This document shows positions 305 through 17,059 of a DNA stretch of 17,059 nt, piece after piece. The stretch comes from a virus (lineage: Duplodnaviria > Heunggongvirae > Uroviricota > Caudoviricetes). Every line of letters starts with the position of its first letter. Within the stretch, counting starts at the first letter, position 1. The translations under genes and the position numbers were made by a program. The DNA lies in the IMG/VR virus record IMGVR_UViG_2579778535_000004, positions 1 to 17,059 of that record; one strand, 5' to 3'. Below the pieces are notes generated by a model, which saw only the letters and a list, made by a program, of their open reading frames with translations, did no database searches and was not told the origin of the DNA.

Positions 305-307
305 GGA

Positions 308-649: not shown

Positions 650-709
650 ATAAACTCCGTACATAAAAAATCCCACCGGAGTGGGACTCATTAACAGATT
701 AATTTTTCA

Positions 710-2545: not shown

Positions 2546-2956
2546 GTGTGCGTTTCTCCTGCTCTATCCTGTTTGCCTGACTGACCAGTAAGGGAATTTC
2601 ACTGATCGGCATATTCAGCAATTCGAAAGGATTAATGCGCCAGTAACTGGCGCAGTCAAAGAAGCGATCAGTGAGGTATTCAGCCGTCAGGCCTGGAGGA
2701 AAAAACCAGCCACAAGCCACGCCGCTGCATTCAGGTCTGCCGGAGACATCTGGTCGACAGAGCTTTGCGGCACTTTCGCCAGCCGCACAATGTATTTCGA
2801 TACCACATGCGCCAGAAGTCTGACGGACTCATCCTGATTCATCTGGTAGGGATACCCCAGCTCGCGGACATCTTTCCCGGTGGGCTCATCAAACTCCAGT
2901 ACGGAGAGTGTCTCGCCATGAGCGGTAATCGGTTTCTTTAACTCAAGCTCTTTCAT
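2538..2956 (-). CDS. Tail assembly chaperone long form made by programmed -1 frameshift
   Basis: The -1 frame from the slippery site (plus-strand A-run 2701-2706) stays open to the stop at 2538-2540 and matches the C-terminal 55 aa of track ORF 2538..2720 (FFPPGLTAEYL...). The product ends 8 nt inside the tape-measure start. This is the arrangement conserved in phage tail chaperone genes. Confidence 0.55.
2687..2956 (-). CDS. Tail assembly chaperone (short product)
   Basis: 89-aa ORF between the tube and tape-measure genes. Its start overlaps the tube stop as TAATG. It ends just after a T TTT TTC slippery run. Confidence 0.75.
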   Translation of the reverse strand: MKELELKKPITAHGETLSVLEFDEPTGKDVRELGYPYQMNQDESVRLLAHVVSKYIVRLAKVPQSSVDQMSPADLNAAAWLVAGFFLQA

Positions 2957-3312
2957 TACTGGTAATCCCCTTCTTCACCGTGGAACTCAAGATCAACCGT
3001 CCCTTCTTCGGCATTATGGTTTGCTTCGCCGTGCAGCCAGGCAGACGACAGTACATAGACCTGACCGTTCGCCAGCTCGGCTGTGATGGTCATCTCATCA
3101 GACGAGGTGATTTTGCTCACCGGAAAATTCTTCGGCACCTTGAAGGTCCCTTTAACATAAGGCGCACGGTGAGTTTCCTTGCGGTCCACTGAACCGTCCA
3201 GGCCGATGATGTCATCATTGACCGTCCTGTTCATGGGCACCTCAATGCCGCCGGTCAGCGATAGCTGCTGACCGTCAATTTTGAAATAACAGGTTCCCCC
3301 GATACGGGCCAT
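2956..3312 (-). CDS. Tail tube protein (Mu gpM-like)
   Basis: 118-aa ORF placed immediately upstream of the chaperone and tape-measure genes. It has an AGGAG ribosome-binding site, and an upstream reading frame ends TAATG on its start. Confidence 0.65.
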   Translation of the reverse strand: MARIGGTCYFKIDGQQLSLTGGIEVPMNRTVNDDIIGLDGSVDRKETHRAPYVKGTFKVPKNFPVSKITSSDEMTITAELANGQVYVLSSAWLHGEANHNAEEGTVDLEFHGEEGDYQ

Positions 3313-3583
3313 TATGCGGACTCCTCTGAATACTGAAGACGGAACTGGTTAACCACGGCAAAGACACGCAACTGGTTAACATAGTCAGGCGGGAACAGCG
3401 TGTTCAGGCGGTTCGGATCGCTGGCATCACGCTCCACAACCAGGTACTGCTTAAAAAGTTCGTAGTTTTCCACGATCCCCGCACGCTCAAGCTGACGGTA
3501 GCGATGGTGTATTGAGGCTGGCTATCTTCCTTCGCGAAGGATGCAAGGTCTTCAAACTGCTTAGCTGTAAGAACCACTGTCAT
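3313..3583 (-). pseudogene. Gene remnant read in two frames, possibly the 3' end of a tail sheath gene at a deletion junction
   Basis: Minus-strand ATG at 3583 opens a 59-codon frame (MTVVLTAKQFEDLASFAKEDSQPQYT...) that stops at 3404. A second frame, open from about 3521, carries protein-like sequence (...ELFKQYLVVERDASDPNRLNTLFPPDYVNQLRVFAVVNQFRLQYSEESA) and ends TAATG on the tube start, but has no ATG. Confidence 0.3.
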
Positions 3584-3595
3584 ACCTCTGTCGTT

Positions 3596-3619
3596 AAAAA
3601 ACCTCGCTATTGCGAGGTT
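3596..3619 (-). terminator. Intrinsic terminator-like hairpin at the end of the lysis cassette
   Basis: Minus strand reads AACCTCGC-AATA-GCGAGGTT followed by TTTT. The Rz1 stop codon lies in the loop. Confidence 0.45.
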
Positions 3620-3864
3620 CGCGATTGCTCAATCGTTCGGATGTCCGCTTTATCTCTGTTACACTGCCCCAGCGCCAACAACAAGCTGACATTCAAATCC
3701 AAACTGCCTCCATAGGTCAGCGGCTCAGGAATAGCTGGTTGCAGTGTTTCAGTGGTCAGATTCGCCGGTAATGGCACCGCTGGAACTGGCACGTAAACTG
3801 TCCGCGTACTTCCGCAACCGGTCAGCAGCGGCAGCAGGCACAGCACGTGAAGCACAATCATCAT
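3607..3864 (-). CDS. o-spanin (Rz1-like outer-membrane lipoprotein)
   Basis: Alternate frame beginning inside the Rz gene: MMIVLHVLCLLPLLTGC with an LTGC lipobox, then a proline-rich stretch. About 38 codons are embedded in Rz and the frame runs on past the Rz stop. Confidence 0.6.
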   Translation of the reverse strand: MMIVLHVLCLLPLLTGCGSTRTVYVPVPAVPLPANLTTETLQPAIPEPLTYGGSLDLNVSLLLALGQCNRDKADIRTIEQSRTSQ

Positions 3865-4141
3865 CCGCAACAGCCATTTTGATATCTTCCTGGGTTCTCT
3901 GTGACTCCAGTGTGCTCTGCTGTTTTGCATGCTGGTTAGCCTCCAGTACTGTATTGACGATTTGCAGTGATTGCAGGACGTTATTGGTAATGGCAGTTGC
4001 CGATTTGGCATTTTGTACAGCCTCATCAGCACGTTTCTTTTCGTGCTGATATTTGCTGTAGTAGTAGTTGGCTGACCAGATGAAAGAACTGACGACAGTA
4101 AAAAGGAAAGCAGCGATAACCAGCTTATAGCTTAACTTCAT
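3749..4141 (-). CDS. i-spanin (Rz-like)
   Basis: 130-aa ORF with an N-terminal transmembrane helix (LVIAAFLFTVVSSFIW) and a charged, helical remainder. It starts within the 3' end of the endolysin gene. Confidence 0.7.
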   Translation of the reverse strand: MKLSYKLVIAAFLFTVVSSFIWSANYYYSKYQHEKKRADEAVQNAKSATAITNNVLQSLQIVNTVLEANQHAKQQSTLESQRTQEDIKMAVADDDCASRAVPAAAADRLRKYADSLRASSSGAITGESDH

Positions 4142-4601
4142 TTACCACCCCACCAGCCTCTTTAAATCGGGCAATCAGGTCACCGATTTTATGTTCATAC
4201 TGACCGTAACCTGCACCAGGTAACGACGCCCAGATATTGCTGCACCGGTCGATTGCCTGACGGATATCGCCGCGATCAATCATCGGTAAAGCACCTCGCT
4301 CTTTAATCTGCTGCAATGCCACTGCGTCCTGGCTTTTGGGGGAGAAGTCTTTCAGAGCAAGCTGTTTACGGTATGCATCCCACCAACGGGAAAGAAGCTG
4401 GTATCGCCCGGCAGCCGTTGATTTGAGTTTTGGGTTCAGCGTGACAAGTTTGCGAGGATGATCGGAGTAATCAGTGAACAGTTCGCCTCCCACAATAACG
4501 TCATAACCGTGGTTACATGTCGGTTGCCGTCCGTTATCAGTTCCTTCTGACCATGCCACCATATCGAGGAAAGCTTTACGCTGGGAATTTAGTACCTGCA
4601 T
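4125..4601 (-). CDS. R: Endolysin, lambda R-like lytic transglycosylase
   Basis: The 158-aa translation is close to identical to lambda R as I remember it (NSQRKAFLDMVAWSEGTDNGRQ...GYDVIVGGELFTDYSDHPR...DRCSNIWASLPGAGYGQ). Confidence 0.9.
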   Translation of the reverse strand: MQVLNSQRKAFLDMVAWSEGTDNGRQPTCNHGYDVIVGGELFTDYSDHPRKLVTLNPKLKSTAAGRYQLLSRWWDAYRKQLALKDFSPKSQDAVALQQIKERGALPMIDRGDIRQAIDRCSNIWASLPGAGYGQYEHKIGDLIARFKEAGGVVNEVKL

Positions 4602-4604
4602 AAA

Positions 4605-4931
4605 TTACTCCTTAGAGCCACCAAACTTATTACCGATTACTCTCATTGCAGCCCCACGAATAGCATCGACACCGATCAACCCAACGCCACCACCAATGGC
4701 AACAGAAAGCGATTTAGGCCATCCGACATACTCAAGAGCGGATGCAAAAGTCAGCGTCAGAGCGCCACAGAGTAGAATTTCGAGTGTTTTTCGCTTCCAG
4801 CCACCACCACCGCCAAAATAGGCAATGCGCAAACCAGCCATAACAATCGACATAATCACTGCGCCCAGCGGTGTGTCTCCACGCCACCAGCTCTGGACCA
4901 ACTCCAGCCAGGTATTTGGGTTATGAGGCAT
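4605..4931 (-). CDS. Holin
   Basis: 108-aa ORF immediately upstream of the endolysin. It has two to three hydrophobic helices and a charged C-terminus, with GAGGTGAGAG upstream of the ATG. Confidence 0.7.
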   Translation of the reverse strand: MPHNPNTWLELVQSWWRGDTPLGAVIMSIVMAGLRIAYFGGGGGWKRKTLEILLCGALTLTFASALEYVGWPKSLSVAIGGGVGLIGVDAIRGAAMRVIGNKFGGSKE

Positions 4932-5082
4932 TTGTAGTTATCTCTCACCTCGCTGATACAGCAGGTGCAAATTGAGGAAACATCATGTACCGCAAATCAG
5001 AAGCGGAAACGTCAAAGAAGCCGAGTCAATGGATAACTGCGGGATAGACCAGGCCCAACGAATCCCTAGGCCCAGAAACGAC

Positions 5083-5105
5083 AAAACCCGCTCGACGGCG
5101 GGTTT
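5083..5105 (-). terminator. Perfect 8-bp-stem hairpin, possible tR'-like terminator of the late leader
   Basis: AAACCCGC-6 nt loop-GCGGGTTT. On the minus strand the stem is followed by TTTTGTCGTTTCT. It sits between the cassette and the holin. Confidence 0.3.
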
Positions 5106-5151
5106 AAGCTGTGTGGCGAAGTAACCACTCTTAACAGATTACAATGATTTT

Positions 5152-5179
5152 TGCGTACGCGTTAGCATTTTCGTAAAAT
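5152..5179 (+). promoter_or_regulatory. Candidate sigma70 promoter for the nuclease-methyltransferase cassette
   Basis: TTGCGT at 5152-5157, a 16-nt spacer, then TAAAAT at 5174-5179, about 30 nt upstream of the ATG at 5211. Found by eye only. Confidence 0.25.
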
Positions 5180-5210
5180 ACATTACCTTGCAACCATTTC
5201 AGTATAAAAA

Positions 5211-7001
5211 ATGAGCACAGAATTAAAACTAAAGAAAATTATGGCATCGTCTAAAATTGAGCCATTTATTAGACATATTCGTTTTCCTTTTTTTAAAAAC
5301 CTTGCAGAGGGTAGCAAGATTGATTTTGAGTATCCAATTACAGCATTAGTTGGTCAAAACGGAACCAATAAAAGTTCTGTTTTAAGAGCCCTATTCGGTT
5401 CTCCAAACAACTATTCTCTGGGTAGCTTATGGTTTTCTACAGATGTAGATGAGATTAAAGATGGTGGTCGTTCTAGATTTATTTATGGATATTATGACAA
5501 AGCTACTGATTCAATTGTTGAAGTAATTAAAACTCGAATCTCTAAAGAAAATGATCCTGATTACTGGGAACCATCCAGACCATTAAAATCCGACAACATG
5601 GCTCCAATGCCTAGTACAACAATCTCAACCAATCAACTAAGGACTAGGTGGAAAGCTATTGACAAAAATGTAATATATTTAGATTTCAGAGCAACTATCA
5701 GTGCATTTGATAAGTTCTTTTATCACTCTGATTTTCATACATACCCTAAGAAAGATTATCTTAGAAAACGCAGTCAGATGCTAAAAGACATTATAGATAA
5801 CGATCTTAAAAAATATCAACCTCATAAAGGAAAAAAAGACAAGCTATTTGTTAACACTTTATTAGAAAAAAGTAAGGTAGAGGCAATCAGCAAGATTTTA
5901 GGTCGCAAATACACAAGCATCCGCCTTATTGAACATAGCTTATTCACTAATGACAAAGCTCCCACAATTATTCTTCAATCAGAAAACTTAAAATATTCTG
6001 AAGCTTTTGCAGGCAGTGGGGAATTTGCTGTATCTATATTAGTGCATAAACTAATGGATAGCCCTGATGCATCTTTAATTCTGCTAGATGAACCTGAAGT
6101 ATCACTTCACCCTTCTGCTCAATGTCAATTGATGGAATTTTTATCAGAACAAGCACTTAAAAAGAAACATCAAATTGTCATATCCACACATTCATCAACA
6201 ATAGTAAAAGACTTGCCTAAAAATGCCATAAAATTATTCTGTCTGAATGATAAAATAGGAAAGGTTGATGTTCTTCAAAATGTCAGTCCAGAAGAATCTT
6301 TCTTTATTCTTGGTGAACGCATTGATAAAAGAACCGTTATTGTAGAAGATCGGTTAGCGAAGAGGTTTGTAGAAAAGGCGCTTAAAGCGGGTGGTGAAGC
6401 ATTATTAAACTCCTTCGAAGTAAAACATGTTCCTGGAGGAGCGGGAAGTATTCTTCAAACTTTGGCTGTGCCTTTATGTGTTGCCAATGTTAAAAACGTT
6501 ATTTTCTTATTAGATGGTGACCAATCGAGAACTGATGATTATCCAACTTCTGATTCCATACCAGAAAATCAAAACACAAACCTTCAAAACATCATAAAAA
6601 AAATAACCAATCAAGATATAAAATTTAGTTGTGATGGTTCTAATGGCTCATCAAATAACAATCAAAAATACAAAATGCAAAGAAATTTTATCGATTTCAT
6701 CCACGATAAAATTGCTTTTCTTCCTGTTTATACTCCTGAAGCATTTCTTATTGAGAATGTTCATGGTGATTATAAAGAATATAAAGATCAAATCCCCAAA
6801 AACATTCAAGATGCTAAAGAAATCACCAAAGAACTTTGTAAGTTAGACACAGGGTTGGAGAACGTTACCAGTGACGATATCTTTGAAACACAAATCAGAA
6901 TTCTTAATAAAATACCAAATAATCATGAAGTGTTAACAAAAACTCGAGAGTTGCTGCAAATCTTTTTAGATAATGATACTATCAGACCAAGAGTGAGGTA
7001 G
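5211..7001 (+). CDS. Predicted OLD/Gabija-GajA-like nuclease: N-terminal ABC-type ATPase fused to a C-terminal TOPRIM domain
   Basis: 596-aa ORF with a P-loop LVGQNGTNKSS, Walker B ILLDEPEVSLHP, a STHS H-loop-like motif, and a C-terminal TOPRIM pattern (TVIVEDRLAKRF...NVIFLLDGDQS, about 60 aa apart). Hand counts give about 27-30% GC here versus about 45-55% in flanking lines. Confidence 0.65.
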   Translation: MSTELKLKKIMASSKIEPFIRHIRFPFFKNLAEGSKIDFEYPITALVGQNGTNKSSVLRALFGSPNNYSLGSLWFSTDVDEIKDGGRSRFIYGYYDKATDSIVEVIKTRISKENDPDYWEPSRPLKSDNMAPMPSTTISTNQLRTRWKAIDKNVIYLDFRATISAFDKFFYHSDFHTYPKKDYLRKRSQMLKDIIDNDLKKYQPHKGKKDKLFVNTLLEKSKVEAISKILGRKYTSIRLIEHSLFTNDKAPTIILQSENLKYSEAFAGSGEFAVSILVHKLMDSPDASLILLDEPEVSLHPSAQCQLMEFLSEQALKKKHQIVISTHSSTIVKDLPKNAIKLFCLNDKIGKVDVLQNVSPEESFFILGERIDKRTVIVEDRLAKRFVEKALKAGGEALLNSFEVKHVPGGAGSILQTLAVPLCVANVKNVIFLLDGDQSRTDDYPTSDSIPENQNTNLQNIIKKITNQDIKFSCDGSNGSSNNNQKYKMQRNFIDFIHDKIAFLPVYTPEAFLIENVHGDYKEYKDQIPKNIQDAKEITKELCKLDTGLENVTSDDIFETQIRILNKIPNNHEVLTKTRELLQIFLDNDTIRPRVR

Positions 7002-7004
7002 ATA

Positions 7005-8045
7005 ATGGCTAAAAAGATACACGTTTACGATTTCTTTTCCGGCTGCGGCGGAACCAGTGTAGGCCTAAAAGCGGTGGGAATGGAAATTATTTTCGGTTTA
7101 GATATTGATCTAGACTCCGCTAACACCTTTAAAATGAATAATCCATTTGCACATTTTATCAATGGTGATATCAAAGATACACACGTTGAGGAAATTAAGC
7201 ATCTGGTTTGTGCGTCAACACAAAGCAAAGCTCTAACCCTATTTTGTGGTTGTGCTCCATGTCAACCATTCTCGAAACAAAATAAAATACGGAACGAGGA
7301 TGATCCGAGAAAAGATCTGCTTACTGAGTTTGCACGGTTTGTCTCTTATTATACGCCAGACTTTGTACTGGTAGAGAATGTACCAGGAATCCAAAATGTC
7401 GATATTAACAATGGAAATTTCCAGAAATTTCTTGAGATTTTAGCACATCATCACTACAACGTTGATTTTGGTGTGATTCCTGCGTTGTGGTTCGGGGTTC
7501 CTCAAACACGTGAACGTTTTGTTTTACTGGCGTCAAAACACACGAATATTAAGCTTCCATCACAAACTCATGATGGGTTAAAAACTCCGTATGCAACTGT
7601 CAGAGACTGGATCGGCGGATTACCTCCTATTGCTGCCGGTGAAACTCATAAAGATGTTATGGATCATACAGCAGCCAAACTATCTGATCTAAATATTAAA
7701 CGTATTAAAGCGACTCCTGAGGGAAAAGGTAGAGAATCTTGGCCTGAAGAACTTATACTAAAATGCCATAAAAAATATAAAGGGCATACTGATGTTTATG
7801 GACGGCTTTCTTGGGACAAACCAGCAAGTGGATTAACAACTAGATGTATAAGCTATTCGAATGGACGTTTCGGACATCCAGAGCAAGATAGGGCTATTTC
7901 TGTTAGAGAGGCTGCGTTATTACAGACTTTCCCATTAGACTATTCCTTCACAGGCTCTTTAGTCTCGAAAGCCAAACAGATAGGGAATGCAGTCCCTCCC
8001 AAGATGGCTGAAGCTCTTGGAAGGGCTATCATCGCATCACTTTAA
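7005..8045 (+). CDS. DNA (cytosine-5)-methyltransferase
   Basis: Motif I FSGCGG, motif IV GCAPCQPFS with the catalytic Cys, motif VI LVENVPG, motif VIII PQTRERF, motif X QIGNAVPP, in canonical order. The ATG is 4 nt after the upstream stop, so the two genes are probably co-translated. Confidence 0.9.
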   Translation: MAKKIHVYDFFSGCGGTSVGLKAVGMEIIFGLDIDLDSANTFKMNNPFAHFINGDIKDTHVEEIKHLVCASTQSKALTLFCGCAPCQPFSKQNKIRNEDDPRKDLLTEFARFVSYYTPDFVLVENVPGIQNVDINNGNFQKFLEILAHHHYNVDFGVIPALWFGVPQTRERFVLLASKHTNIKLPSQTHDGLKTPYATVRDWIGGLPPIAAGETHKDVMDHTAAKLSDLNIKRIKATPEGKGRESWPEELILKCHKKYKGHTDVYGRLSWDKPASGLTTRCISYSNGRFGHPEQDRAISVREAALLQTFPLDYSFTGSLVSKAKQIGNAVPPKMAEALGRAIIASL

Positions 8046-8055
8046 AAGCGGAGCC

Positions 8056-8412
8056 CTAGAGGGCTTCGCCTAACAATAATAGAATACCTGATATAAACCC
8101 TATAGCTCCCTGAAGCTCTTTTCTAATTGCTCCATCAGAGCATTTTCTTTTCTTAGCAATGGTGCGTAATGAGATACCAATCACAAAATGAGCAATGATC
8201 AGCTCATATTCTTCTGGTTTATACTTCCGCAGGCGGGCGACACAGCCATCAATCATGATGCCTTCATCATCATCACACTGAATCCGGGACTTTCTGCCAT
8301 GAGGTAAAAGCCCCTTGAAGCCAGCGGCTACCGGTTGCCAATCCACACCACTGTTCTCTGCCGCAGCCCACGCTCCCCAACGGTCTAATACTTCATACAT
8401 ATCACACATCAA
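8056..8412 (-). CDS. Late-gene antiterminator Q (Phage_antitermQ family)
   Basis: 118-aa protein with VLDRWGAWAA...AAGFKGL...CDDDEG...C, matching the Q family of several lambdoid prophages as I recall it. It sits between the nin-like genes and the lysis region. Confidence 0.8.
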   Translation of the reverse strand: MMCDMYEVLDRWGAWAAAENSGVDWQPVAAGFKGLLPHGRKSRIQCDDDEGIMIDGCVARLRKYKPEEYELIIAHFVIGISLRTIAKKRKCSDGAIRKELQGAIGFISGILLLLGEAL

Positions 8413-8426
8413 CTTTCTCCACCAAA

Positions 8427-9422
8427 TCAGGCTAGCACACCAATTGCCAACGCACGGTCGATAAAACGAAATATCAGCTCCAGCTGGGAGCCATACTTCT
8501 CTTCAAATGCCACGGTATCCGCATGCAGCTCGTCGTGATGCTTTCTGCACAAAGGCAACACAAAGAGGTCATGCGCTTTTGTACCCATTCCGCCCTGACC
8601 GTGGCCTATCAGGTGGTGGGGATCATCAGCAGGTTTTCCACAACATGCGCACGGCTGCGTCTTAACCCAGCGCGTGTACTTTTCATTAACCCAGCGGTGA
8701 CGTTTTGGGCGTAACATAAAAGACTCCGGCGACTCCGGATCCACTTTCAGCGCCAGCACCTTTTTCGCCTTATCCTGGATGATGCTGGTGGCAGGAACCG
8801 AAGGCACAAGGTCACTTTCCCGGGTAACAGACGGCACAACAGGCTTCGGTAATCTCAGTGCCTTACGGGCTGCACTTTCCGGTAAGGCATCCGCCAGATC
8901 ATTACGAATCAGCCACCAGCACAGTTCCGGCATTGTCACAACATGACTGTCATCAAAACCGAGATCCCGACGCACAACAGACAACACCCAGCGGGCACAG
9001 TTATCCGTTGCCATTGATTCCAGCCGTTCCGTGAACTGATCGCGCAGCTGGTTATCGCAGTGCCAGCACAGACGGATTGCGCCCGGAGCGTGTCGCATTG
9101 TTGTCATGTTCTCGCTGTGCCAGTCGGAATGAGGCCACTGGCAGCCTTTTTCACGAAGTAACCAGCTTTCAAGACATTCCACGCCACCAGCACGACGGAT
9201 CACTGCCTCATTGCGGAACACGGCCAGAACGGCAGGATCATCCGCCAGCGGTTGTGATGCCGCCGGAACAGCACCACTGGCGAAAGATGAATAACGTTCC
9301 GGCTCAGGCTCCAGCAGGACACGCCCCTGCATAAACAGGGGCATCAGCTCTGAACCTGGTCTGAACAATACGATCCCCATACGCGGGGCAATTTCAGGGG
9401 TCAGTAGTGCTCTCACGGTCAC
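8427..9422 (-). CDS. DUF968-family phage protein with an HNH-like zinc-finger C-terminus
   Basis: 331-aa ORF whose C-terminus reads CACCGKPADDPHHLIGHGQGG...LPLCRKHHDELH. Its position next to Q matches the usual placement of DUF968 genes in lambdoid prophages. Confidence 0.7.
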   Translation of the reverse strand: MTVRALLTPEIAPRMGIVLFRPGSELMPLFMQGRVLLEPEPERYSSFASGAVPAASQPLADDPAVLAVFRNEAVIRRAGGVECLESWLLREKGCQWPHSDWHSENMTTMRHAPGAIRLCWHCDNQLRDQFTERLESMATDNCARWVLSVVRRDLGFDDSHVVTMPELCWWLIRNDLADALPESAARKALRLPKPVVPSVTRESDLVPSVPATSIIQDKAKKVLALKVDPESPESFMLRPKRHRWVNEKYTRWVKTQPCACCGKPADDPHHLIGHGQGGMGTKAHDLFVLPLCRKHHDELHADTVAFEEKYGSQLELIFRFIDRALAIGVLA

Positions 9423-9423
9423 C

Positions 9424-10233
9424 TCAATGAACGGTATCGAGCAGCTTTAACAGCTCAGGGAATCGGGATTCGAAGAAATGCGGCTGCGTCTCGCGCGGAT
9501 TTGCGGGACTGGTGATGTTCTTGCCGAACATGCAGCCTTTCGCTGTCAGTGACCAGAATTTTTTGATGTTGTTAATCGCGGTACGGCTGTATCGTTCGCG
9601 CTGCTCGACGATCCCCAGTTTCACCATCTGGTGATATGCCTGATTAGCCGTCAGGCGGATACCATACTGTTTCAGCAGTGCACTCAGTGACAGTGTCGGG
9701 CGACTTGAGCCATCGTGTGCATCAGCAGGAGCATCAATGGCATAGCGCGGTGCCAGATTCGGTAAGCCAACAGCCTCCTGGAGTTTCTGACAGGCACCAA
9801 GCACTGAAGAGTTAGACAGGTTTAACTCCCTGCGCATAAAGTCCAGCAGAATCACTCCAGCCTGCATCTTGTCAGCAGCCTGCCCGGATAATTTTTCCGA
9901 TGCGCTGGTTACCATATCGAAAGTACGGATCACCTTCAGATGGAATGACGGGCTGATCCACATTGCATAGGCATACACCAGTTCTTTGCAGACATACGTC
10001 CCCTGGTTATTTCCGCCATTAATGACGCTAACTGGTTGATTTTGTTCCAGAGGTGGAATTCCACCCTCGGTGAAAAGTTGTTCAATCAATTCACAGGTTT
10101 GCTTATTGGAGAGCCAGTATTTCGGGCGGTTTTTTTGTTCTCCCCCGGCTGCCCTGTGCAGATCGTTCAGGCTGTAACGCCCATAAGCATCACGACGAAC
10201 TTCAATACCATCAATGACCATCAGATTATTCAT
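9424..10233 (-). CDS. KilA-N domain protein (antirepressor-like)
   Basis: The N-terminus MNNLMVIDGIEVRRDAYGRYSLNDLHRAAGG...KYWL is a typical KilA-N domain. The internal ATG at 10231-10233 is preferred over the track start because AGGAG lies about 7 nt upstream. Confidence 0.7.
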   Translation of the reverse strand: MNNLMVIDGIEVRRDAYGRYSLNDLHRAAGGEQKNRPKYWLSNKQTCELIEQLFTEGGIPPLEQNQPVSVINGGNNQGTYVCKELVYAYAMWISPSFHLKVIRTFDMVTSASEKLSGQAADKMQAGVILLDFMRRELNLSNSSVLGACQKLQEAVGLPNLAPRYAIDAPADAHDGSSRPTLSLSALLKQYGIRLTANQAYHQMVKLGIVEQRERYSRTAINNIKKFWSLTAKGCMFGKNITSPANPRETQPHFFESRFPELLKLLDTVH

Positions 10234-10252
10234 ACTTCGTTTCTCCTCTTGA

Positions 10253-10642
10253 TCAGGCGGCTGCACCCGCCGTTTTCTCGTACTTACTGATAGTGATCTC
10301 GACCTTCCCTTCCGGGATAACCGGTCCCCACTCCACCAGCATTCTTTTCACCTGACTGTCGTCTTCCCACACACCCGCGTGGGTCAGGGCGTCAAACAGC
10401 GCCTTGTTATAGTTGTCCAGATCGCGGATCCGGTTATCCGGAGGAAACAACACGATCTCCACTGAAGCAGGTGCCGACGTTGGTTTTGGCAGACGACGTA
10501 ACTGCTCAACTATTGCTGCACACGCCGCGCTCTGGAATTTGCGCCCCGCCGCGCTTATCAGGCTCTTACCTGCAAACGCCCCTTGGTTGGGGTGTCGCCA
10601 GTACGTGTTCACGCTGGGCGGAAAAGGCAGTATTAGCTTCAT
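10253..10642 (-). CDS. rusA: RusA-family Holliday junction resolvase
   Basis: 129-aa protein with LPFPPSVNTYWRH...RDLDNYNKALFDALTHAGVWEDDSQV, the RusA signature. Its start forms an ATGA overlap with the upstream gene. Confidence 0.85.
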   Translation of the reverse strand: MKLILPFPPSVNTYWRHPNQGAFAGKSLISAAGRKFQSAACAAIVEQLRRLPKPTSAPASVEIVLFPPDNRIRDLDNYNKALFDALTHAGVWEDDSQVKRMLVEWGPVIPEGKVEITISKYEKTAGAAA

Positions 10643-10965
10643 ACTTTCAGCTCCCTCTCATGTAACCAGTGGGCTGCACGCAGCCTGGCGTTTTCCTCAC
10701 CGGCAAGCAGTGAGCGGATAATCCCGACCGCCTCGCTGTCGTCGTCCTTCACCGCGGTATGAAGCGTTATCCCCCGGGCCACGCCACGCTTTATCGTGAT
10801 GACGCCTTTTTTCTCCAGTGCGCGAAGATGCTCCACCGCTGCATTCACTGAACGGTATCCCAGCATGGTTGCCACCTCCTGATTGGTTGGCGGAAAGCCA
10901 CGCTCTTTCTGGTAAGAAATCAGCATATCCAGCACCTGCTGCTGGCATTGAGTTAACGTCGTCAT
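10639..10965 (-). CDS. LexA-like N-terminal DNA-binding domain protein with no peptidase domain
   Basis: MTTLTQCQQQVLDMLISYQKERGFPPTNQEVATMLGYRSVNAAVEHLRALEKKGVI parallels the LexA winged-helix domain. The start at 10963-10965 is chosen because it overlaps the upstream stop as TAATG. Confidence 0.6.
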   Translation of the reverse strand: MTTLTQCQQQVLDMLISYQKERGFPPTNQEVATMLGYRSVNAAVEHLRALEKKGVITIKRGVARGITLHTAVKDDDSEAVGIIRSLLAGEENARLRAAHWLHERELKV

Positions 10966-11459
10966 TACGCCCCCACGTAATTCCCTGACAGATACCACTC
11001 ATCACTCGATACAGCGCGCTTGCTGCTTTTCCGTAAACACTGCTCACGACGCGCCAGAAAATTGTTTCGTTCTGGCTGGGAGTGGCTTTCACGGAATGCC
11101 ACCACCCACACCGTTGCAGCACGACGGTATAAGCCCCTGGACTCCAGTTCTTCCGCCTGGCGGGTCAGGCACAAAATCTCCCGCGGGTCGTTAGTGCCGA
11201 CATAGAAATTGCGCACAGGTCTGGTTTCACGAACTGATTGCGGTTCCGCCTCCTGCGCTCTCTCAGTCAGGCGCGGGAAATGTCTGCGTGTATCCCCTTC
11301 ACAACGGTGAGCCACACGACCACTCTGACGTAACTTGCTTGCTGACTGCAGAACGCGCTGCCGTGAGTAACCTGCAAAAGCATCCGCAATGTCTCCGGAA
11401 GTACACCCCGGATGGGCTTCAATGAATTTCTGAACGTCATTCAAAAGACTCATGCTCAC
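10965..11459 (-). CDS. Putative PerC/Pch-like regulator
   Basis: The C-terminal half has RGLYRRAATVWVVAF...ARREQCLRKS, resembling the GLWRRAA-RW motif of PerC-family activators. This is a memory-based call and unverified. Confidence 0.4.
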   Translation of the reverse strand: MSMSLLNDVQKFIEAHPGCTSGDIADAFAGYSRQRVLQSASKLRQSGRVAHRCEGDTRRHFPRLTERAQEAEPQSVRETRPVRNFYVGTNDPREILCLTRQAEELESRGLYRRAATVWVVAFRESHSQPERNNFLARREQCLRKSSKRAVSSDEWYLSGNYVGA

Positions 11460-12397
11460 CCCCTGAATCCTGCCGGGATCTGGCTGTAGTCCACGTTGTC
11501 GTAACTGGCTTTGAAGTACGGGTCTTCGCGTTTTTCGGTGTACGTGCTGACGGACGGCGATAAGCGCAGGGAAAGCTCATCCCATTTTTCCCGCAGCTTC
11601 GACGGGCTGAGCACGTTACGGCACCAGAACGGATCGCGACTGACGCGGCTGTACATCTCGCAGATTTGTTTATGAGTACGACCATCCTGCACACACATCA
11701 GGCGAATTTCGTTTGCCCAGGCTGTCCAGTTCGGTTCTTTGGGACGAACCACCTCGCCGTCACATTCGGCGGCCTGCTCGTACAGGGCGATGATTTTTTT
11801 CCAGAGCCACTGTGCGCAGGTCAAATCATCCTGCGTTCCCCACTGGCGCTTTTTAGGGCTGAATACAACCGCATCAGGATGGCGAGTTAAAAACTCCTGT
11901 TCAGCCGTCTGCGTGTCCGGTTGCGAAGCGTCCGGACGAGAAGTTTTTTTATCTGACGGATCATGTTTTGATTTTACTGACGGATCCCCGCCAGATTCTG
12001 ACGGGTGAAAACCCGCTTTTTTGCCAGATTTCGACGCATCAAATTTTGACGGGTCAGATTTTGATGCGTCAGATTTTGACGGGTCAGAATCTGACAGTTG
12101 AGAAAATGCCGCTGCCTGAAGCTTCGCAACGTTAAGCTGATAAACATTCGACGCATTGCGGTTACCCTGGCGACGCGCCTTACGCGTTAACCAGCCTTCT
12201 GCTTCCAGCCGTGCGATAGCCGTCCTGACGGTACTCATCCCCGCGCCAATCTGACGGGCAATAGTTTCAATTGATGGCCAGCACACACCTTCGTCATTAC
12301 TGAAATCAGCCAGGCGGGCCATAATTGCCACGCTGGATAATTTCATGCCTGATGCAGCGCAACCATCCCATACATAGCCGGTTAATTTAGTGCTCAT
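11456..12397 (-). CDS. Replication initiator-like protein (N-terminal HTH domain, repeat-encoded linker, C-terminal domain)
   Basis: 313-aa ORF with an N-terminal winged-helix region and a central SKSD-type peptide repeat encoded by tandem DNA repeats. It occupies the position of a lambdoid O gene after the cro and CII-like genes. Confidence 0.55.
   Translation of the reverse strand: MSTKLTGYVWDGCAASGMKLSSVAIMARLADFSNDEGVCWPSIETIARQIGAGMSTVRTAIARLEAEGWLTRKARRQGNRNASNVYQLNVAKLQAAAFSQLSDSDPSKSDASKSDPSKFDASKSGKKAGFHPSESGGDPSVKSKHDPSDKKTSRPDASQPDTQTAEQEFLTRHPDAVVFSPKKRQWGTQDDLTCAQWLWKKIIALYEQAAECDGEVVRPKEPNWTAWANEIRLMCVQDGRTHKQICEMYSRVSRDPFWCRNVLSPSKLREKWDELSLRLSPSVSTYTEKREDPYFKASYDNVDYSQIPAGFRG
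11948..12098. repeat. Tandem 15-bp direct repeats (iteron-like) inside the replication initiator gene
   Basis: Five contiguous 15-bp units between 12024 and 12098 (TCAGATTTTGACGGG and variants), plus three degenerate copies back to 11948. They encode the linker of the initiator. Confidence 0.55.
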
Positions 12398-12406
12398 GAC
12401 CGACCT

Positions 12407-12745
12407 CTATTTCCCTGAATTTACGACGAAACTGTTCGAGCGGACTGAAGCACTCATGCTCATAGCCTTCGCGGAGGTAGATAACCCGTTGTGTTTCCGG
12501 TTCCCAACGAATGACTCTGACGGGCACTCCGTAGTGATCTTTGAACCAGCGGTTAACTTGTCGCAAAGGACTGTCTCCTTCTGCCGGTTGAAATCACCCA
12601 CAGCCCACTCTGCAAAGCTGTGGGTTACAATTTCCCTGTCACCTGGTACATTTACTGCATAGCAATACTCCACCTTCGCTTTTCCACCCGGTACAGGAAG
12701 CGCAATCAGTTGCGAGCGACGGTAGTGTGTTGTTAAACTGTTCAT
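12407..12745 (-). CDS. Hypothetical phage protein with an ambiguous 3' reading frame (possible frameshift)
   Basis: The N-terminal half ([53 protein letters not shown]) looks protein-like. The Ser-rich tail of the listed frame looks less so than an alternative frame (12387-12593, ...[56 protein letters not shown]) that ends overlapping the next gene's start. Confidence 0.4.
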
Positions 12746-13305
12746 GCGTTAGTTTCTCCACAGTCACGACACGCCACGGCGCCCGGAGCTGCACACTCGC
12801 GGGCGTCATTACTTTCTGAAATGCAAAAGATTTTGTAGACCAGTGCTGCATGCTCCTGCAGCTTCGAAATTGAGAGATATAGCTCGTCGTTAATTGCTGT
12901 TTTCTCATGCGGTTCCACTACACCGTCTTCGATTGCTGAACGAATCTGTTTTGAATAACTGCCGATCTGTTCAATGACTTCCAGCAGACGCTGGTTAATA
13001 TCGGCGTTGTCCACATCCTCGACGTCAGGAAGAGACACAAATACGCCATTTGCAGACTGCGCCACAGCATCAGCAATGAAGTGAGTGCCACCAGCACGCT
13101 GTAAAACCATTGCCCATCCCAGCGGAAAAATCTGATCGCCATCTGCACGAAGGCGGTTGAATAAAGCGTTCTCTGTTACATCCAGCCAGTCAGCCGCTTC
13201 AGCGTAACCACCCGGCAACGCCGCGATAGTTTTTCTGACAGCTTTCACGTACCACTCAGGCTGTTTTTCTATTTTCCAGTGATGCTTACCCACGATTAGC
13301 CTCAT
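12742..13305 (-). CDS. Putative CII-like regulatory protein
   Basis: 187-aa ORF immediately downstream of the cro-like gene. The family assignment is from weak remembered similarity and position only. Confidence 0.4.
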
Positions 13306-13336
13306 CGTTCTGTGGTTAAAAATTGAAAGTGTTCTG

Positions 13337-13537
13337 CTAATCTTTCGGATAGATATCCGGTCTTAAGTCAGATTTCGTAATTGCACCTGACGTGCATTGC
13401 TCAAGTTTTTTAGCCAGCACAAAACTGGCTTTTTTATAGCCATTGAAAACCAGCCGTAAGTAGCCAGGTGTTGAGCCAACTTTTCCGGCCAACTCGCCCT
13501 GCTGTTCTTTGGTTAAAGAGTCCCAATACGCTTTCAT
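13337..13537 (-). CDS. Cro-like HTH regulator (YdaS-type)
   Basis: MKAYWDSLTKEQQGELAGKVGSTPGYLRLVFNGYKKASF...SDLRPDIYP. GGAGG lies 9 nt upstream of the ATG at 13535-13537. It is divergent from the CI-like gene. Confidence 0.65.
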   Translation of the reverse strand: MKAYWDSLTKEQQGELAGKVGSTPGYLRLVFNGYKKASFVLAKKLEQCTSGAITKSDLRPDIYPKD

Positions 13538-13591
13538 ACAATATGTACCTCCGGTGTACATACTACATGATTAAAATGAACCTTCAAGATA

Positions 13592-13612
13592 CTTGTACCT
13601 TAACGGTACAAG
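13592..13612. promoter_or_regulatory. Palindromic operator in the CI/cro divergent promoter region
   Basis: CTTGTACC-TTAAC-GGTACAAG, with perfect 8-bp arms, overlapping a candidate plus-strand promoter (TTGTAC, 17 nt, TTTAAT) whose start site would fall at the CI ATG. Confidence 0.5.
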
Positions 13613-13627
13613 GGTTTTAATTTCGTT

Positions 13628-14302
13628 ATGAAAACAATCCATGACATCCGGCGGTCTAACGCCAGAAAACTGAGAGATGGTGTAGGCGGGAATTCTTCCT
13701 TTGCCACTATGATTGATCGCGAGCCAACCCAGACCAGCAGGTTTATGGGAGATGGTGCTACTAAAAATATCGGTGACAGCATGGCACGACACATCGAAAA
13801 ATGTTTCGACCTGCCTGTCGGATGGCTCGATCAAGAACACCAGACAACCAACATCACAAAAAAACCTGATGTTTCAATCACTAATAAACAAATCACATTA
13901 GTCCCTGTCATATCATGGGTACAGGCCGGAGCATGGAAAGAAGTTGGATATTCTGAGGTTGATTTGAGCACAGCAGAAACGTATCCCTGCCCTGTACCCT
14001 GTGGGGAAATGACTTATATCTTGCGGGTGATAGGTGATTCAATGATTGATGAGTACCGCCCGGGAGACATGATTTTTGTCGATCCTGAAGTACCTGCCTG
14101 CCACGGTGACGACGTTATTGCATTGATGCACGATACAGGTGAAACCACCTTCAAAAGGTTGATAGAAGATGGGACACAGCGTTATCTCAAAGCGTTAAAC
14201 CCAAACTGGCCTGAGCCTTACATTAAGATCAACGGTAATTGCTCTATAATTGGAACTGTGATTTTCTCAGGAAAACCAAGAAGATACAAAATCAAAGCCT
14301 AA
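13628..14302 (+). CDS. CI-like repressor (HTH plus S24 LexA-type autopeptidase domain)
   Basis: 224-aa ORF with an N-terminal HTH, an Ala-Gly cleavage site (VQAGAWKE), the catalytic Ser in VIGDSM and a Lys in TFKRL. Confidence 0.85.
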   Translation: MKTIHDIRRSNARKLRDGVGGNSSFATMIDREPTQTSRFMGDGATKNIGDSMARHIEKCFDLPVGWLDQEHQTTNITKKPDVSITNKQITLVPVISWVQAGAWKEVGYSEVDLSTAETYPCPVPCGEMTYILRVIGDSMIDEYRPGDMIFVDPEVPACHGDDVIALMHDTGETTFKRLIEDGTQRYLKALNPNWPEPYIKINGNCSIIGTVIFSGKPRRYKIKA

Positions 14303-14314
14303 TCAATGTTTATG

Positions 14315-14337
14315 AACCTGCTTCGGCAGGTTTTTTT
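14315..14337 (+). terminator. Rho-independent terminator after the repressor gene
   Basis: AACCTGC-TTCG-GCAGGTT followed by a run of seven T. Confidence 0.65.
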
Positions 14338-14341
14338 ATAC

Positions 14342-14374
14342 TTGACAATGTACCTTTGAGATACATAATGTATC
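14342..14374 (+). promoter_or_regulatory. pL-like promoter with an overlapping palindrome (candidate operator)
   Basis: TTGACA at 14342-14347, a 16-nt spacer, then CATAAT at 14364-14369. The palindrome GATACAT-A-ATGTATC (14360-14374) covers the -10. Confidence 0.4.
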
Positions 14375-14473
14375 CAAGAGAAACAAAAAACAGGCAGGAC
14401 GCCCACGAAGTAGCCGCCGGTGGCGTATGAATGACCGGATGATTCGTTAAATACTATGTGTAAGAGAGCGCAA

Positions 14474-14677
14474 ATGAACCGTTATTTCACATGCTCGTTT
14501 TGTGGCGCAAACGAGCTGCAGGCAAAAAAAATCATCGCCAAAGGCGGAAAAGATGAAGTTGCTATCTGCTCTGAGTGCGTAGTCTTGTGTGTCGGGGCAT
14601 TAATCAATATCAGCACAACTATTCAGTTCACACCAAATGAGAATGCGCCTTTAGATGCGCGGAAATCTGGAGGTTAA
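14474..14677 (+). CDS. Small zinc-ribbon protein resembling the ClpX N-terminal zinc-binding domain
   Basis: FTCSFCGANELQAKKIIAKGGKDEVAICSECVVLC parallels the ClpX zinc-binding domain (CSFCG ... ICDECV-LC). The start is taken at the internal ATG at 14474, preceded by AGAGAG. Confidence 0.5.
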   Translation: MNRYFTCSFCGANELQAKKIIAKGGKDEVAICSECVVLCVGALINISTTIQFTPNENAPLDARKSGG

Positions 14678-14685
14678 AGAACAAA

Positions 14686-14961
14686 ATGAAAGTCCAGATT
14701 TTAAACAATAGTGGTGAAGTCGTTTGGTCATACGACATAGCCGCTCCTGTAGATCAGAGCGGCGATAGCTGGACCAATGGGAAACATCAGATTATGGCTG
14801 GAGTTGTGTTCTCTTTACGCCGTGCTTTAGAACAGGCTGAAGTCTTTCCATCAGACCCTGAATGGAAATGGCCTTTTTCTATTTGTCCAAATTCGGAGAG
14901 TACATTTCAGAAAATTGGTCAGAAAGTCGCACTCGAAGAGCATCAGCCAACTGTTTCCTGA
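14686..14961 (+). CDS. Hypothetical protein, second gene of the left operon
   Basis: 91-aa ORF with GGAGG about 12 nt upstream. Its 3' end overlaps a convergent ORF by about 83 nt. Confidence 0.45.
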   Translation: MKVQILNNSGEVVWSYDIAAPVDQSGDSWTNGKHQIMAGVVFSLRRALEQAEVFPSDPEWKWPFSICPNSESTFQKIGQKVALEEHQPTVS

Positions 14962-15124
14962 TTTTTTCAGGTAACTCGTCGGCATCGCAGAAACAACAAC
15001 GCTCGATCATGTTGAAAGCCGATTCGTAGAACTGTTTTTGCTGAGTGTCGCTGAGACAGGAAAAGAGCGACGTTACGATGATTTTATTAATTGCATTATC
15101 AAGTTCTTTTTCATCAAAAGTCAT
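14879..15124 (-). CDS. Hypothetical protein, convergent with the left operon
   Basis: 81-aa ORF with AAGGA about 8 nt upstream of the ATG at 15122-15124 and protein-like composition. Confidence 0.45.
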   Translation of the reverse strand: MTFDEKELDNAINKIIVTSLFSCLSDTQQKQFYESAFNMIERCCFCDADELPEKIRKQLADALRVRLSDQFSEMYSPNLDK

Positions 15125-15378
15125 TTGATTTTCCTTTTATGTATACGGGCTTAAAAGGATACCACCGAGCCTGAAGTGGTGAAAAGACAGGCACATAACA
15201 GCTAAGTATTTTCAACCAGAGAGAATCCTTAGCGTTGTGGTGAATGCGGCTCAGCGCACACGGGTTAAGGTTGAGGCTGACAGTCGACCTTCTGTGGATA
15301 CCCACCCGCCTGGTGTGCAACCTTCGCCAGGCACCGGGAGGCACCCGGCACCACAACTTTATGCTGTGTGTAGTCTTA

Positions 15379-15423
15379 GCGGTACCAGCTTGTACCCTTG
15401 CTTCCGGCTGGTACCGTCCTTTT
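15379..15423 (+). terminator. Terminator-like hairpin inside an ORF-poor GC-rich region
   Basis: CGGTACCAGC-17 nt loop-GCTGGTACCG followed by TCCTTTTT. The loop contains CTTGTACC, identical to the operator half-site at 13592-13599. Confidence 0.35.
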
Positions 15424-15637
15424 TACAAAACAGAGAAGAGCATCACCGGACGACGGGCTCATAACCCAATCCATCCGGGCGGCTGCCACCGCAGGTGTTC
15501 TTCTCTGTTTTGTGGAGAAACTAACCGCCCCTACGGGGGCATTTATGGAAATGTAATTGACTCAATAATCGCCGGACGGTGAGGGCTTCCTTTTACCCGA
15601 ATTCAGCGCGGTGCAGCGCATATACGTGGAGAACAAA

Positions 15638-16174
15638 ATGTCATTTATTAAAACTTTTTCCGGGAAGCATTTTTATTATGACAGGATAAATAAAGACGAC
15701 ATCGTTATTAACGATATCGCGGTTTCCCTTTCAAATATCTGTCGCTTTGCAGGACATCTTTCACACTTCTACAGTGTCGCCCAACATGCGGTGCTTTGCA
15801 GCCAGCTGGTGCCACAGGAATTTGCTTTTGAAGCTTTAATGCATGATGCAACAGAAGCATATTGCCAGGACATCCCCGCACCACTGAAACGACTTCTTCC
15901 TGACTATAAACGGATGGAAGAAAAAATAGACGCCGTAATACGTGAGAAATACGGGTTACCTCCTGTTATGAGCACGCCAGTGAAATATGCCGATCTCATT
16001 ATGCTGGCAACCGAACGCCGCGATCTCGGGCTTGATGATGGCTCTTTCTGGCCTGTACTGGAAGGTATCCCGGCAACAGAGATGTTCAAAGTGATTCCAC
16101 AGGTACCGGGCCATGCCTACGGGATGTTTATGGAACGTTTTAACGAGTTATCGGAGTTACGCAAATGCGCATGA
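15638..16174 (+). CDS. HD-domain phosphohydrolase
   Basis: H...HD metal-binding pattern (SVAQHAVLCSQL ... ALMHDATEAY). The start is taken at the ATG at 15638, with GGAGAA 8 nt upstream. Confidence 0.7.
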   Translation: MSFIKTFSGKHFYYDRINKDDIVINDIAVSLSNICRFAGHLSHFYSVAQHAVLCSQLVPQEFAFEALMHDATEAYCQDIPAPLKRLLPDYKRMEEKIDAVIREKYGLPPVMSTPVKYADLIMLATERRDLGLDDGSFWPVLEGIPATEMFKVIPQVPGHAYGMFMERFNELSELRKCA

Positions 16175-16527
16175 ATGTTTTCGAAATGGAAGGGTTTCTT
16201 CGTGGGAGATGTGTACCGCGAGATCTGAAAGTGAATGAAACAGATGCTGAATACCTGGTGCGTAAATTCGATGCGCTTGAAGCTAAATGTGCAGCACAGG
16301 AAAACAAAGTAATACCAGTGTCAACTGAACTGCCACCAGCAAATGAAAGTGTTTTGTTATTCGATGCTAACGGAGAAGGCTGGCTAATTGGCTGGCGTTC
16401 TCTCTGGTACACCTGGGGACAAAAAGAAACCGGAGAATGGCAGTGGACATTTCAGGTCGGGGACCTTGAAAACGTCAATATCACTCACTGGGCAGTAATG
16501 CCAAAAGCACCGGAGGCTGGAGCATAA
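16165..16527 (+). CDS. DUF551-like phage protein
   Basis: 120-aa ORF ending ...GEWQWTF...ITHWAVMPKAPE, reminiscent of DUF551. GGAG lies about 10 nt upstream. Confidence 0.45.
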   Translation: MRMNVFEMEGFLRGRCVPRDLKVNETDAEYLVRKFDALEAKCAAQENKVIPVSTELPPANESVLLFDANGEGWLIGWRSLWYTWGQKETGEWQWTFQVGDLENVNITHWAVMPKAPEAGA

Positions 16528-16832
16528 TGACCACTTTTACCGACAAAGAACTGATTAAAGAAATTAAAGAGCGTATCAGCAGCCTTGACGTGCGAGACGA
16601 TATTGAGCGCCGTGCTTATGAAATCGCACTCCTATCTCTGGAAGTAGAACCAGATGAACGCGAAGCTTATGAATTATTCATGGAAAAGCGTTTCGGTGAC
16701 TTAGTAGATCGTCGGAGAGCAAAAAACGGCGATAACGAATACATGGCATGGGATATGACTCTCGGTTGGATCGTCTGGCAGCAACGAGCAGGTATCCATT
16801 TTTCAACAATGTCACAACAAGAGGTGAAATAA
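16527..16832 (+). CDS. Hypothetical phage protein
   Basis: 101-aa ORF whose ATG overlaps the upstream stop, with GGAGG about 12 nt upstream. Confidence 0.5.
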   Translation: MTTFTDKELIKEIKERISSLDVRDDIERRAYEIALLSLEVEPDEREAYELFMEKRFGDLVDRRRAKNGDNEYMAWDMTLGWIVWQQRAGIHFSTMSQQEVK

Positions 16833-17059
16833 TGGAGCCATACAGCCTCACACTCGATGAGGCCTGTCATTTTCTCAAGATATCCAGACCGACTGCCATT
16901 AACTGGATACGCACAGGGCGTCTTCAGGCAACACGCAAAGATCCCACTAAGAATAAATCTCCTTACCTCACAACACGACAAGCCTGCATTGCGGCTCTTC
17001 AGTCTCCGCTGCATACTGTCCAGGTGAGCGCGGGTGATGGCATAACAGAGGAAAGAAAA
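16832..17059 (+). CDS. xis: Excisionase-like protein, partial (open to the window end)
   Basis: MEPYSLTLDEACHFLKISRPTAINWIRTGRLQATRKDP is the winged-helix excisionase pattern. GAGGTG lies upstream of the ATG at 16832. No stop is reached within the window. Confidence 0.6.
   Translation, partial: MEPYSLTLDEACHFLKISRPTAINWIRTGRLQATRKDPTKNKSPYLTTRQACIAALQSPLHTVQVSAGDGITEERK

Follow-up and report, generated by a model that had tools for sequence, protein, structure and literature searches.

Locus and layout of the initiator gene

The window analysed here, a 17,059-nucleotide (nt) stretch of virus DNA (IMGVR_UViG_2579778535_000004, positions 1-17,059; Caudoviricetes), is a segment of a lambdoid, SfII/SfIV-like prophage. 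Its minus strand carries an 'O-like' replication-initiator gene (11456..12397), taken from the open reading frame (ORF) list and its translation, whose product of 313 amino acids (aa) is modular: between an N-terminal and a C-terminal domain lies a linker encoded by an array of 15-base-pair (bp) repeats, and this array is the candidate origin of replication with which we deal here. The whole protein aligned with PHROG 391 ('replication initiation O-like'), residues 1-313 falling on positions 1-298 of the profile (E=1.6e-135). At the DNA level the gene is 98-99.6% identical to genes of SfIV, SfII and vB_EcoS-569R4 that are named replication protein O or primosomal protein, and several E. coli phages likewise carry an initiator gene with 98-99.6% identity.

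The N-terminal domain (aa 1-96; 12110..12397, minus strand), the presumed reader of the repeats, is a winged-helix DNA-binding domain with Pfam matches to HTH_36 (aa 23-70, E=4e-11) and GntR (6e-7), and also to HTH_29 and PaaX; weak Pfam matches connect it with the initiator winged-helix domains DnaD_N and RP-C. No match to Phage_rep_O (PF04492) was obtained in the Pfam scan at E<=0.01, and by Pfam the initiator lies outside the lambda O protein family. A PDB sequence search with the full-length protein returned marginal MarR-type matches only, the matched residues (42-119) spanning the N-terminal domain into the repeat linker. The C-terminal module (aa ~160-313; 11456..11918, minus strand), which matches PHROG 2357 and ends in SQIPAGFRG, showed weaker PHROG matches to the 'replisome organizer' and 'DnaD-like helicase loader' families and neither a Pfam nor a PDB sequence match; we presume that it is a host-replisome recruitment domain.

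The repeat array

Five contiguous, iteron-like units arranged head to tail (12020..12094, minus strand) share the core TCARAATCTGA and an imperfect dyad, GTCAGA-W-TCTGAC. In the direction of transcription, and all on the minus strand, these are u1 (TCAGATTCTGACCCG, 12080-12094), u2 (TCAAAATCTGACGCA, 12065-12079), u3 (TCAAAATCTGACCCG, 12050-12064), u4 (TCAAAATTTGATGCG, 12035-12049) and u5 (TCGAAATCTGGCAAA, 12020-12034). They are followed by an 18-nt spacer (AAAGCGGGTTTTCACCCG, 12002..12019, minus strand) that holds a small hyphenated palindrome (CGGGT-TTTC-ACCCG) and whose A-run and TTT are partly kept across homologues. The sixth and best-conserved unit, u6 (TCAGAATCTGGCGGG, 11987-12001, minus strand), is part of a 17-nt dyad (CCGTCAGAATCTGGCGG, 11988-12004) in which 7/8 arm pairs are complementary, and it is nearly invariant in 78 homologues, third codon positions included. 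Three degenerate copies on the same strand (starts 11980, 11971 and 11956) run into an A-rich stretch, which brings the cluster to six clear and three degenerate units within 11942-12094. On the plus strand, a hairpin (CGGGTGAAAACCCG), after which comes CTTTTTTGCC, lies between units 5 and 6 (12002-12015), antisense to the initiator gene; as a terminator it is weak (5-bp stem), and with four such hairpins found against 1.7±1.3 expected it is probably due to chance.

Tandem Repeats Finder reported 12025-12088 with a period of 15 (4.3 copies, 81% matches) and with a period of 30 (2.1 copies, 88%), and a separate repeat search returned families at 15-nt spacing with outlying copies at 11989-12011, 11948-11962 and 11972-11986. 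The 30-bp superperiod, which corresponds to alternating CCG and GCA spacers, was dropped, being absent as a conserved feature in homologues. The core TCARAWTYTGR has nine matches in the window, all inside 11991-12094, where 0.27 are expected, and 0/200 shuffles reached nine; the 13-mer dyad GTCAGAWTCTGAC has four matches at up to two mismatches, all in the cluster (0.34 expected). The original prediction, made from the sequence without database searches, had described five contiguous and three degenerate 15-bp repeats in mid-gene, between an N-terminal helix-turn-helix domain and a C-terminal domain; Tandem Repeats Finder, the unit-by-unit listing and the core count confirm this, and the array does follow the HTH_36 winged helix. 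In the initiator reading frame the repeats read DPSKS/DASKS, the five-residue periodic linker that had been claimed, and the antisense frame reads ...QILTGQILMRQILTGQNLT (...QILTGQIL...), roughly the repeated antisense peptide that had been noticed.

Selection on the DNA of the repeats

Relatives of the N-terminal domain were collected, one genome being taken for each species (80 loci with 52-100% identity at the protein level; Enterobacterales with a few outliers), and six phages were added. The array lies directly after the N-terminal domain in all intact homologues, typically with 5-8 units; most often, by a wide margin, the units are 15 nt apart (295 gaps), and the information content at core positions is 1-2 bits. 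For a test of codon choice, units were selected by the peptide pattern S[KE]S[DE] alone, which gave 147 units from 74 distinct genes of different species. The first serine was encoded by TCA in 97% of these units (16% elsewhere in the same genes), Lys/Glu by AAA/GAA in 100% (about 60% elsewhere), the second serine, at position 3, by TCT in 86% (9%) and Asp by GAC in 80% (47%). As a control, the fifth, 'spacer' codon of the units varies freely, unit positions 11-14 carrying 0.3-0.6 bit, and at 56 conserved columns of the N-domain in these genes the commonest codon has a mean share of 0.54, with a third-position entropy of 1.39 bits. A 60-nt core block (TTTCACCCGTCAGAATCTGGCGGGGATCCGTCAGTAAAATCAAAACATGATCCGTCAGAT; 11951..12010, minus strand) is likewise conserved as DNA: its median identity to the window is 0.85 versus 0.73 for the N-domain, and at identical residues the median third-position identity is 0.88 versus 0.42 (n=77).

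Could the repeats be low-complexity coding sequence made by slippage, specifying a flexible Ser/Lys/Asp linker with a DNA periodicity that has no function? The periodic peptide between two domains and the whole 15-bp steps in unit number among near-identical relatives would suit this explanation, as would a single-sequence AlphaFold2 model, poor overall (predicted local distance difference test score, pLDDT, 43.5), that placed no secondary structure, at low confidence, in aa 100-161. Against it stand synonymous positions with much stronger conservation than those of the neighbouring N-domain, which is under protein constraint, and a residue at unit position 3 that drifts (S, F, P, I, T, N) via single-base changes preserving most of the DNA core. 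Moreover, a Citrobacter locus (L078) and the Shiga toxin (Stx) 2a phage KH16-043 keep GTTTTCACCCGTCAGAATCTGAC in a shifted frame, reading VFTRQNLT instead of GFHPSESG, one nucleotide having been deleted ahead of the element and one inserted behind it; 33 nt upstream lies another copy of the element, in the normal frame. The units are also dyad-symmetric, with a perfect dyad (CCTCCAGAATCTGGAGG) in two loci (L079 and L085) and a closely related one (CCTCCAGATTCTGGAGG) in a third (L087), and dyad symmetry is a feature that a peptide repeat does not need. The synonymous constraint and the retention of the core in another frame contradict the slippage explanation, which we consider very improbable.

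An overlapping antisense or alternative-frame gene, or mRNA structure, might instead impose the synonymous constraint in place of a duplex-DNA site. ORFs of 55-60 aa do overlap the array on both strands, and palindromic units could form RNA hairpins. In the homologues, however, the stop-free stretches of the alternative frames have medians of 36-231 nt for a 134-nt array and shrink to 6-36 nt in some genes; since they barely exceed the array and are very short in some genes, no open frame is conserved across homologues, and an overlapping ORF was rejected as the source of the constraint. An RNA stem would contain an A·C mismatch in most units (A at position 3 in 68%, C at position 7 in 78%), and no promoter-like site was found in 11300-12900. 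We give this explanation as little credence as slippage.

Together, the synonymous constraint and the frame-shifted retained copy indicate that the selected object is the duplex DNA and that the peptide follows, and by these sequence comparisons the repeats are conserved as DNA rather than as protein. The original prediction had named as adverse to it homologues that keep the peptide linker while losing the DNA periodicity; we found the opposite, the DNA being kept more strictly, synonymous positions included. If the repeats are origin iterons, the SKSD-type peptide would be largely a by-product, in a linker able to accept any sequence that the DNA element imposes.

Co-inheritance of the repeats with the N-terminal domain

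Mosaic relatives swap partners at a hinge of 34 nt (…KKTSRPDASQP…; 11919..11952, minus strand). Citrobacter phage phiNP is homologous to the window only over 11919-12396, that is, over the N-domain, the repeats and the adjoining AT-rich tract (83% DNA identity), and has an unrelated C-terminal domain of the TIGR02220 type. Phage mEp460_4F5 is homologous only over 11456-11952, the C-terminal module; its N-domain is another one, and the repeats behind that domain differ as well (23-bp, 12-bp). Within the species set, the module of N-domain plus repeats is joined to at least three types of C-terminal module. Viral contigs scanned for two adjacent units, by DNA pattern alone, gave 125 matches on 120 contigs, and 125/125 lay directly downstream of an N-domain homologue. 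Repeat number, which the original prediction had proposed to compare among relatives, varies by whole 15-bp units: in 80 contigs with a 100% identical N-domain the arrays differ by whole units only, giving proteins of 303, 308, 313, 318 and 323 aa. In mosaic relatives, then, the repeats travel with the N-domain and not with the C-domain, a pattern of co-inheritance as expected if the N-domain reads the repeats.

Sister initiators with other N-domains carry dyad repeats of their own at the same gene position, starting ~290 nt into the gene (L169, 1729-1792; L170, 1723-1808; L002, 2998-3029 and 3111-3168). Examples from 24B 'O', SfV orf39 and mEp460_4F5 are GGGCAGGAGCTGCCC and GTGCAGGAGATGCAC; the repeats of Stx phage 24B 'O' measure 24 bp x2.9 and those of SfV orf39 21-24 bp. 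These initiators of the PHROG 391/9773 group share gene position and architecture with the one studied here, dyad repeats following the N-domain, and the C-terminal module of mEp460_4F5 is nearly identical to that of the window; in contrast, their repeats differ, with 21-24-bp periods, and their N-domains are ~39-43% identical or unrelated. The presence of own repeats in sister initiators makes intragenic arrays look general for this initiator group.

In two E. coli chromosomes (L062 and L086), N-domain residues 1-79 (99% identical) form an in-frame fusion with an ORF of 455 aa, and the repeat array is deleted. The downstream part of the fusion resembles, in our reading, a phage terminase, and the whole resembles what we take to be the ymfN (oweE-aaaE) fusion of the K-12 element e14. 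A circular 15.2-kb e14-like record, OR902851.1 (icd, mcrA, hin, tfaE), has an N-domain that is 81% identical. Plasmid records with the N-domain were rejected as proof of autonomous replication, the 15-kb 'plasmids' looking like excised e14-type or prophage circles.

An AT-rich tract next to the repeats

The original prediction had proposed a search for an adjacent AT-rich unwinding element, and such a tract is present directly downstream of the repeats in the direction of transcription (11939..11985, minus strand; 32% GC, and 27.5% over 11939-11978). This candidate unwinding element contains the degenerate units TCAGTAAAATC and TCAGATAAAAA and the lowest-GC 40-mer of the initiator gene; within the early-right operon, taken as 8427-13561 for composition counts, just 0.24% of the 40-mers have a GC content <=0.30. 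The tract is the sole strongly AT-rich stretch of that operon, and the 40 nt richest in AT in the operon come right after the repeats. The gene is thus laid out in the order N-domain coding, repeats, AT tract, C-domain coding.

Two exact copies of GATCCGTCAG, 24 nt apart, lie within 11953-11986 of the tract, so that Dam (GATC) sites occur at 11959 and at 11983. Homologues keep both of these sites, codon third positions included, and this conserved pair suggests a possible control of the origin by methylation or of the SeqA type. A dam gene is found in the same module of the related phages SfII and SfV. No DnaA box was found near the array, the sole DnaA-box-like site of the window being at 8634.

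Comparison with known intragenic origins

The origin of lambda, inside gene O, consists of four ~19-20-bp iterons and an AT-rich tract, and the Stx phages 933W and P27 have six-iteron origins with an AT tract inside the initiator gene; in origins of this type specificity is linked to the N-terminal half of the initiator, the C-terminal half is exchangeable, and iteron number varies, lengthening the protein (PMC7466680). The analogy with lambda that had been drawn from the repeats, namely origin iterons within the O gene, is accurate (PMC7466680; PMC8022706). As in lambda, 933W and P27, the repeats described here are imperfectly dyad-symmetric, occupy a central position in the initiator ORF immediately behind the part for the DNA-binding N-domain, and have an AT-rich tract on their downstream side. 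Lambda shares further features with the window: cro and a cII-like gene precede the site in the early-right operon, the repeats segregate with the N-terminal half while the C-terminal half is exchangeable, and the unit number varies, lengthening the protein. Unlike lambda, the N-domain here is of the Pfam HTH_36 family and not Phage_rep_O, the units are of 15 bp, head to tail and typically 5-8 in number (lambda, ~19 bp on a 20-24-bp pitch), and the initiator gene is not followed by a gene for a P-type helicase loader.

Gene 18 of P22 holds four ~20-bp repeats, an inferred origin in the initiator gene, and gene 18 of phage L six imprecise 11-bp repeats (TGTCCAACGGA), also an inferred intragenic origin (PMC8022706). 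In these two, the repeats are interpreted as iterons proper to each initiator (PMC8022706). Like them, the window has its distinct short repeats within a distantly related initiator gene, and phage L offers a precedent for a short core of ~11 bp. The two phages pair the initiator with the DnaB-type helicase gp12, whereas the module here has no helicase gene, and their repeat sequence is different.

Iteron origins of theta plasmids (pSC101, R6K, RK2, P1, F) combine a winged-helix Rep protein with direct repeats and an adjoining AT-rich unwinding region; plasmid iterons measure 17-22 bp on a ~22-bp pitch, are usually intergenic and are accompanied by DnaA boxes. The window shares with them the winged-helix type of initiator, the array of direct repeats and the AT-rich region beside it, but its array is intragenic, has a 15-bp pitch and has no DnaA box nearby, which sets it apart from plasmid-type origins. 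Initiator-binding repeats inside the initiator's own gene also occur in SPP1 (G38P/oriL) and lactococcal TP901-1, which have different hosts and partners and encode helicase loader and helicase next door; their repeats are not known to be related in sequence to those of the window. With such Gram-positive 'replisome organizer' systems the C-terminal module has in common its weak PHROG matches to 'replisome organizer' and 'DnaD-like' families.

A candidate replication origin inside its own initiator gene

On the strength of these comparisons, the 15-bp repeats are very probably the binding sites of the initiator at a phage replication origin arranged as in lambda. We put at roughly 80% the probability that the cluster at 11939-12094 is the replication origin of this prophage, located inside the coding sequence of its own initiator and working by dimer binding, AT opening and helicase recruitment. 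The array, its dyad, its conservation as DNA, the AT tract and the linkage to the N-domain were compared for this reading, and from it we infer the steps of the mechanism. An origin in the style of lambda, with iterons and an AT tract and no helicase-loader gene in its module, appears well supported at the level of sequence, where every prediction of the origin-iteron reading that could be examined was borne out; its specificity class would be an undescribed one.

On the model of lambda O/ori and further iteron origins, N-domain dimers would bind six or more units and form a multimeric nucleoprotein complex. The complex would then strain and open the adjoining AT tract (11939-11985), and the C-terminal module would bring in the host DnaB helicase, probably loaded through host DnaC. 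Transcription from the early-right promoter may pass through the site, as it does in lambda.

Several points weigh against this origin and its proposed working. Most units are only 4/5 symmetric, and the AT tract is short (~45 bp). The co-inheritance of repeats and N-domain may partly reflect physical adjacency alone, and in divergent homologues we saw no clear pattern of co-variation between recognition-helix residues and the iteron core. The 15-bp centre-to-centre pitch (~1.4 helical turns) is tighter than that of lambda (~two turns), which implies a different geometry of the complex, and how dimers on neighbouring 15-bp units would stack is not obvious. In the Pfam scan and the comparison of neighbouring genes, the module showed no gene resembling P, DnaB or DnaC, so that loading must use host factors, and the helicase-loading step is conjecture. 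No description of this origin or motif was found in the literature searched, the motif strings matching unrelated primers only, and the SfIV genome paper mentions no origin.

The repeats might also be a protein-binding array at the DNA level with the origin elsewhere, bound by the initiator or by another phage or host protein and serving autoregulation or a block of early-right transcription, a limit on copy number (handcuffing, titration) or the marking of a recombination hinge. The comparative data prove selection on DNA and are silent on its purpose; plasmid iteron arrays also act in copy control, the module junction lies directly beside the array, and there is no DnaA box or further origin hallmark besides the AT tract. 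However, the 17-kb window has just one cluster, Tandem Repeats Finder showing no second array anywhere in the early region, and a place 300 nt inside an ORF would be odd for an operator. Position, dyads, AT tract and N-domain linkage match the experimentally defined origins of lambda and of 933W and P27 (PMC7466680). We regard such a non-origin array as unlikely, though clearly less so than slippage or an overlapping gene.

A more particular form of the origin can be pictured, an 'initiator-only' origin unlike that of lambda, on which dimers at head-to-tail 15-bp dyads would spiral round the DNA rather than wrap it on one face, and which would recruit host DnaB-DnaC with no partner loader, through a short C-terminal tail, [ILV]P-x(1-3)-GFR[GS], mimicking the C-terminal end of DnaT, a restart protein of the host. 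The tail of the initiator, SQIPAGFRG (residues 305-313; 11456-11482, minus strand), is 8/9 identical to what we take to be the C-terminus of E. coli DnaT, and [ILV]P-x(1-3)-GFR[GS] tails recur on at least three unrelated types of C-terminal module among the homologues. The likeness to DnaT probably explains the annotation 'primosomal protein I'. The tail is possibly a short linear motif for host-replisome recruitment, which we offer as a lead and not as a result; the initiator-only model as a whole is a speculative one, to which we give only slightly more weight than to a non-origin array.

Genomic context

The early-right operon on the minus strand, divergent from the cI-like S24 repressor (13628-14302, plus strand), comprises a Cro-like gene, a cII/CP76-like gene, a 112-aa ORF and the initiator gene. 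Downstream of the latter lie PerC-like, LexA-DNA-binding-like, RusA, KilA-N and DUF968/HNH genes and the Q antiterminator, and then the lysis genes. The 112-aa ORF (12407-12745, minus strand), directly upstream of the initiator gene, belongs to PHROG 1170 (function not assigned), has no Pfam match and accompanies this initiator as a conserved neighbour; records of plasmids and chromosomes give the name 'DUF4222 domain-containing protein' to the gene overlapping the beginning of the initiator homologue. A cassette of two genes occupies the opposite strand (5211-8045, plus strand) between the holin (4605-4931, minus strand) and the Q antiterminator (8056-8412, minus strand). One of them encodes an ABC/OLD-like ATPase of 596 aa (PADLOC HEC-04, 2e-36; ATPase-Toprim_I-B, 3.5e-25), the other a C5 cytosine methyltransferase of 346 aa (PF00145, 8e-59). 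The cassette resembles a defence-type moron and takes the place that stx has in Stx phages.

Significance

The advance is a modest one: it adds a new specificity class to a familiar kind of element, such as a specialist would have expected, and no concept beyond the lambda paradigm unless the route of helicase recruitment proves new. For a replication module found widely among Enterobacterales prophages, including SfII, SfIV, e14-like elements and Klebsiella, Yersinia and Citrobacter phages, the analysis offers a concrete candidate origin of ~160 bp, with TCARAATCTGA at a 15-bp pitch as its iteron consensus. It also provides a clean natural case of dual coding, in which a DNA element dictates the sequence of a protein linker, as seen in the synonymous constraint and the frame-shifted retained copy. 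The consensus can be used in the annotation of prophage origins and in the prediction of replication incompatibility or specificity groups, and it may aid the building of replicons or of origin-decoy inhibitors for phages of Shigella and E. coli.

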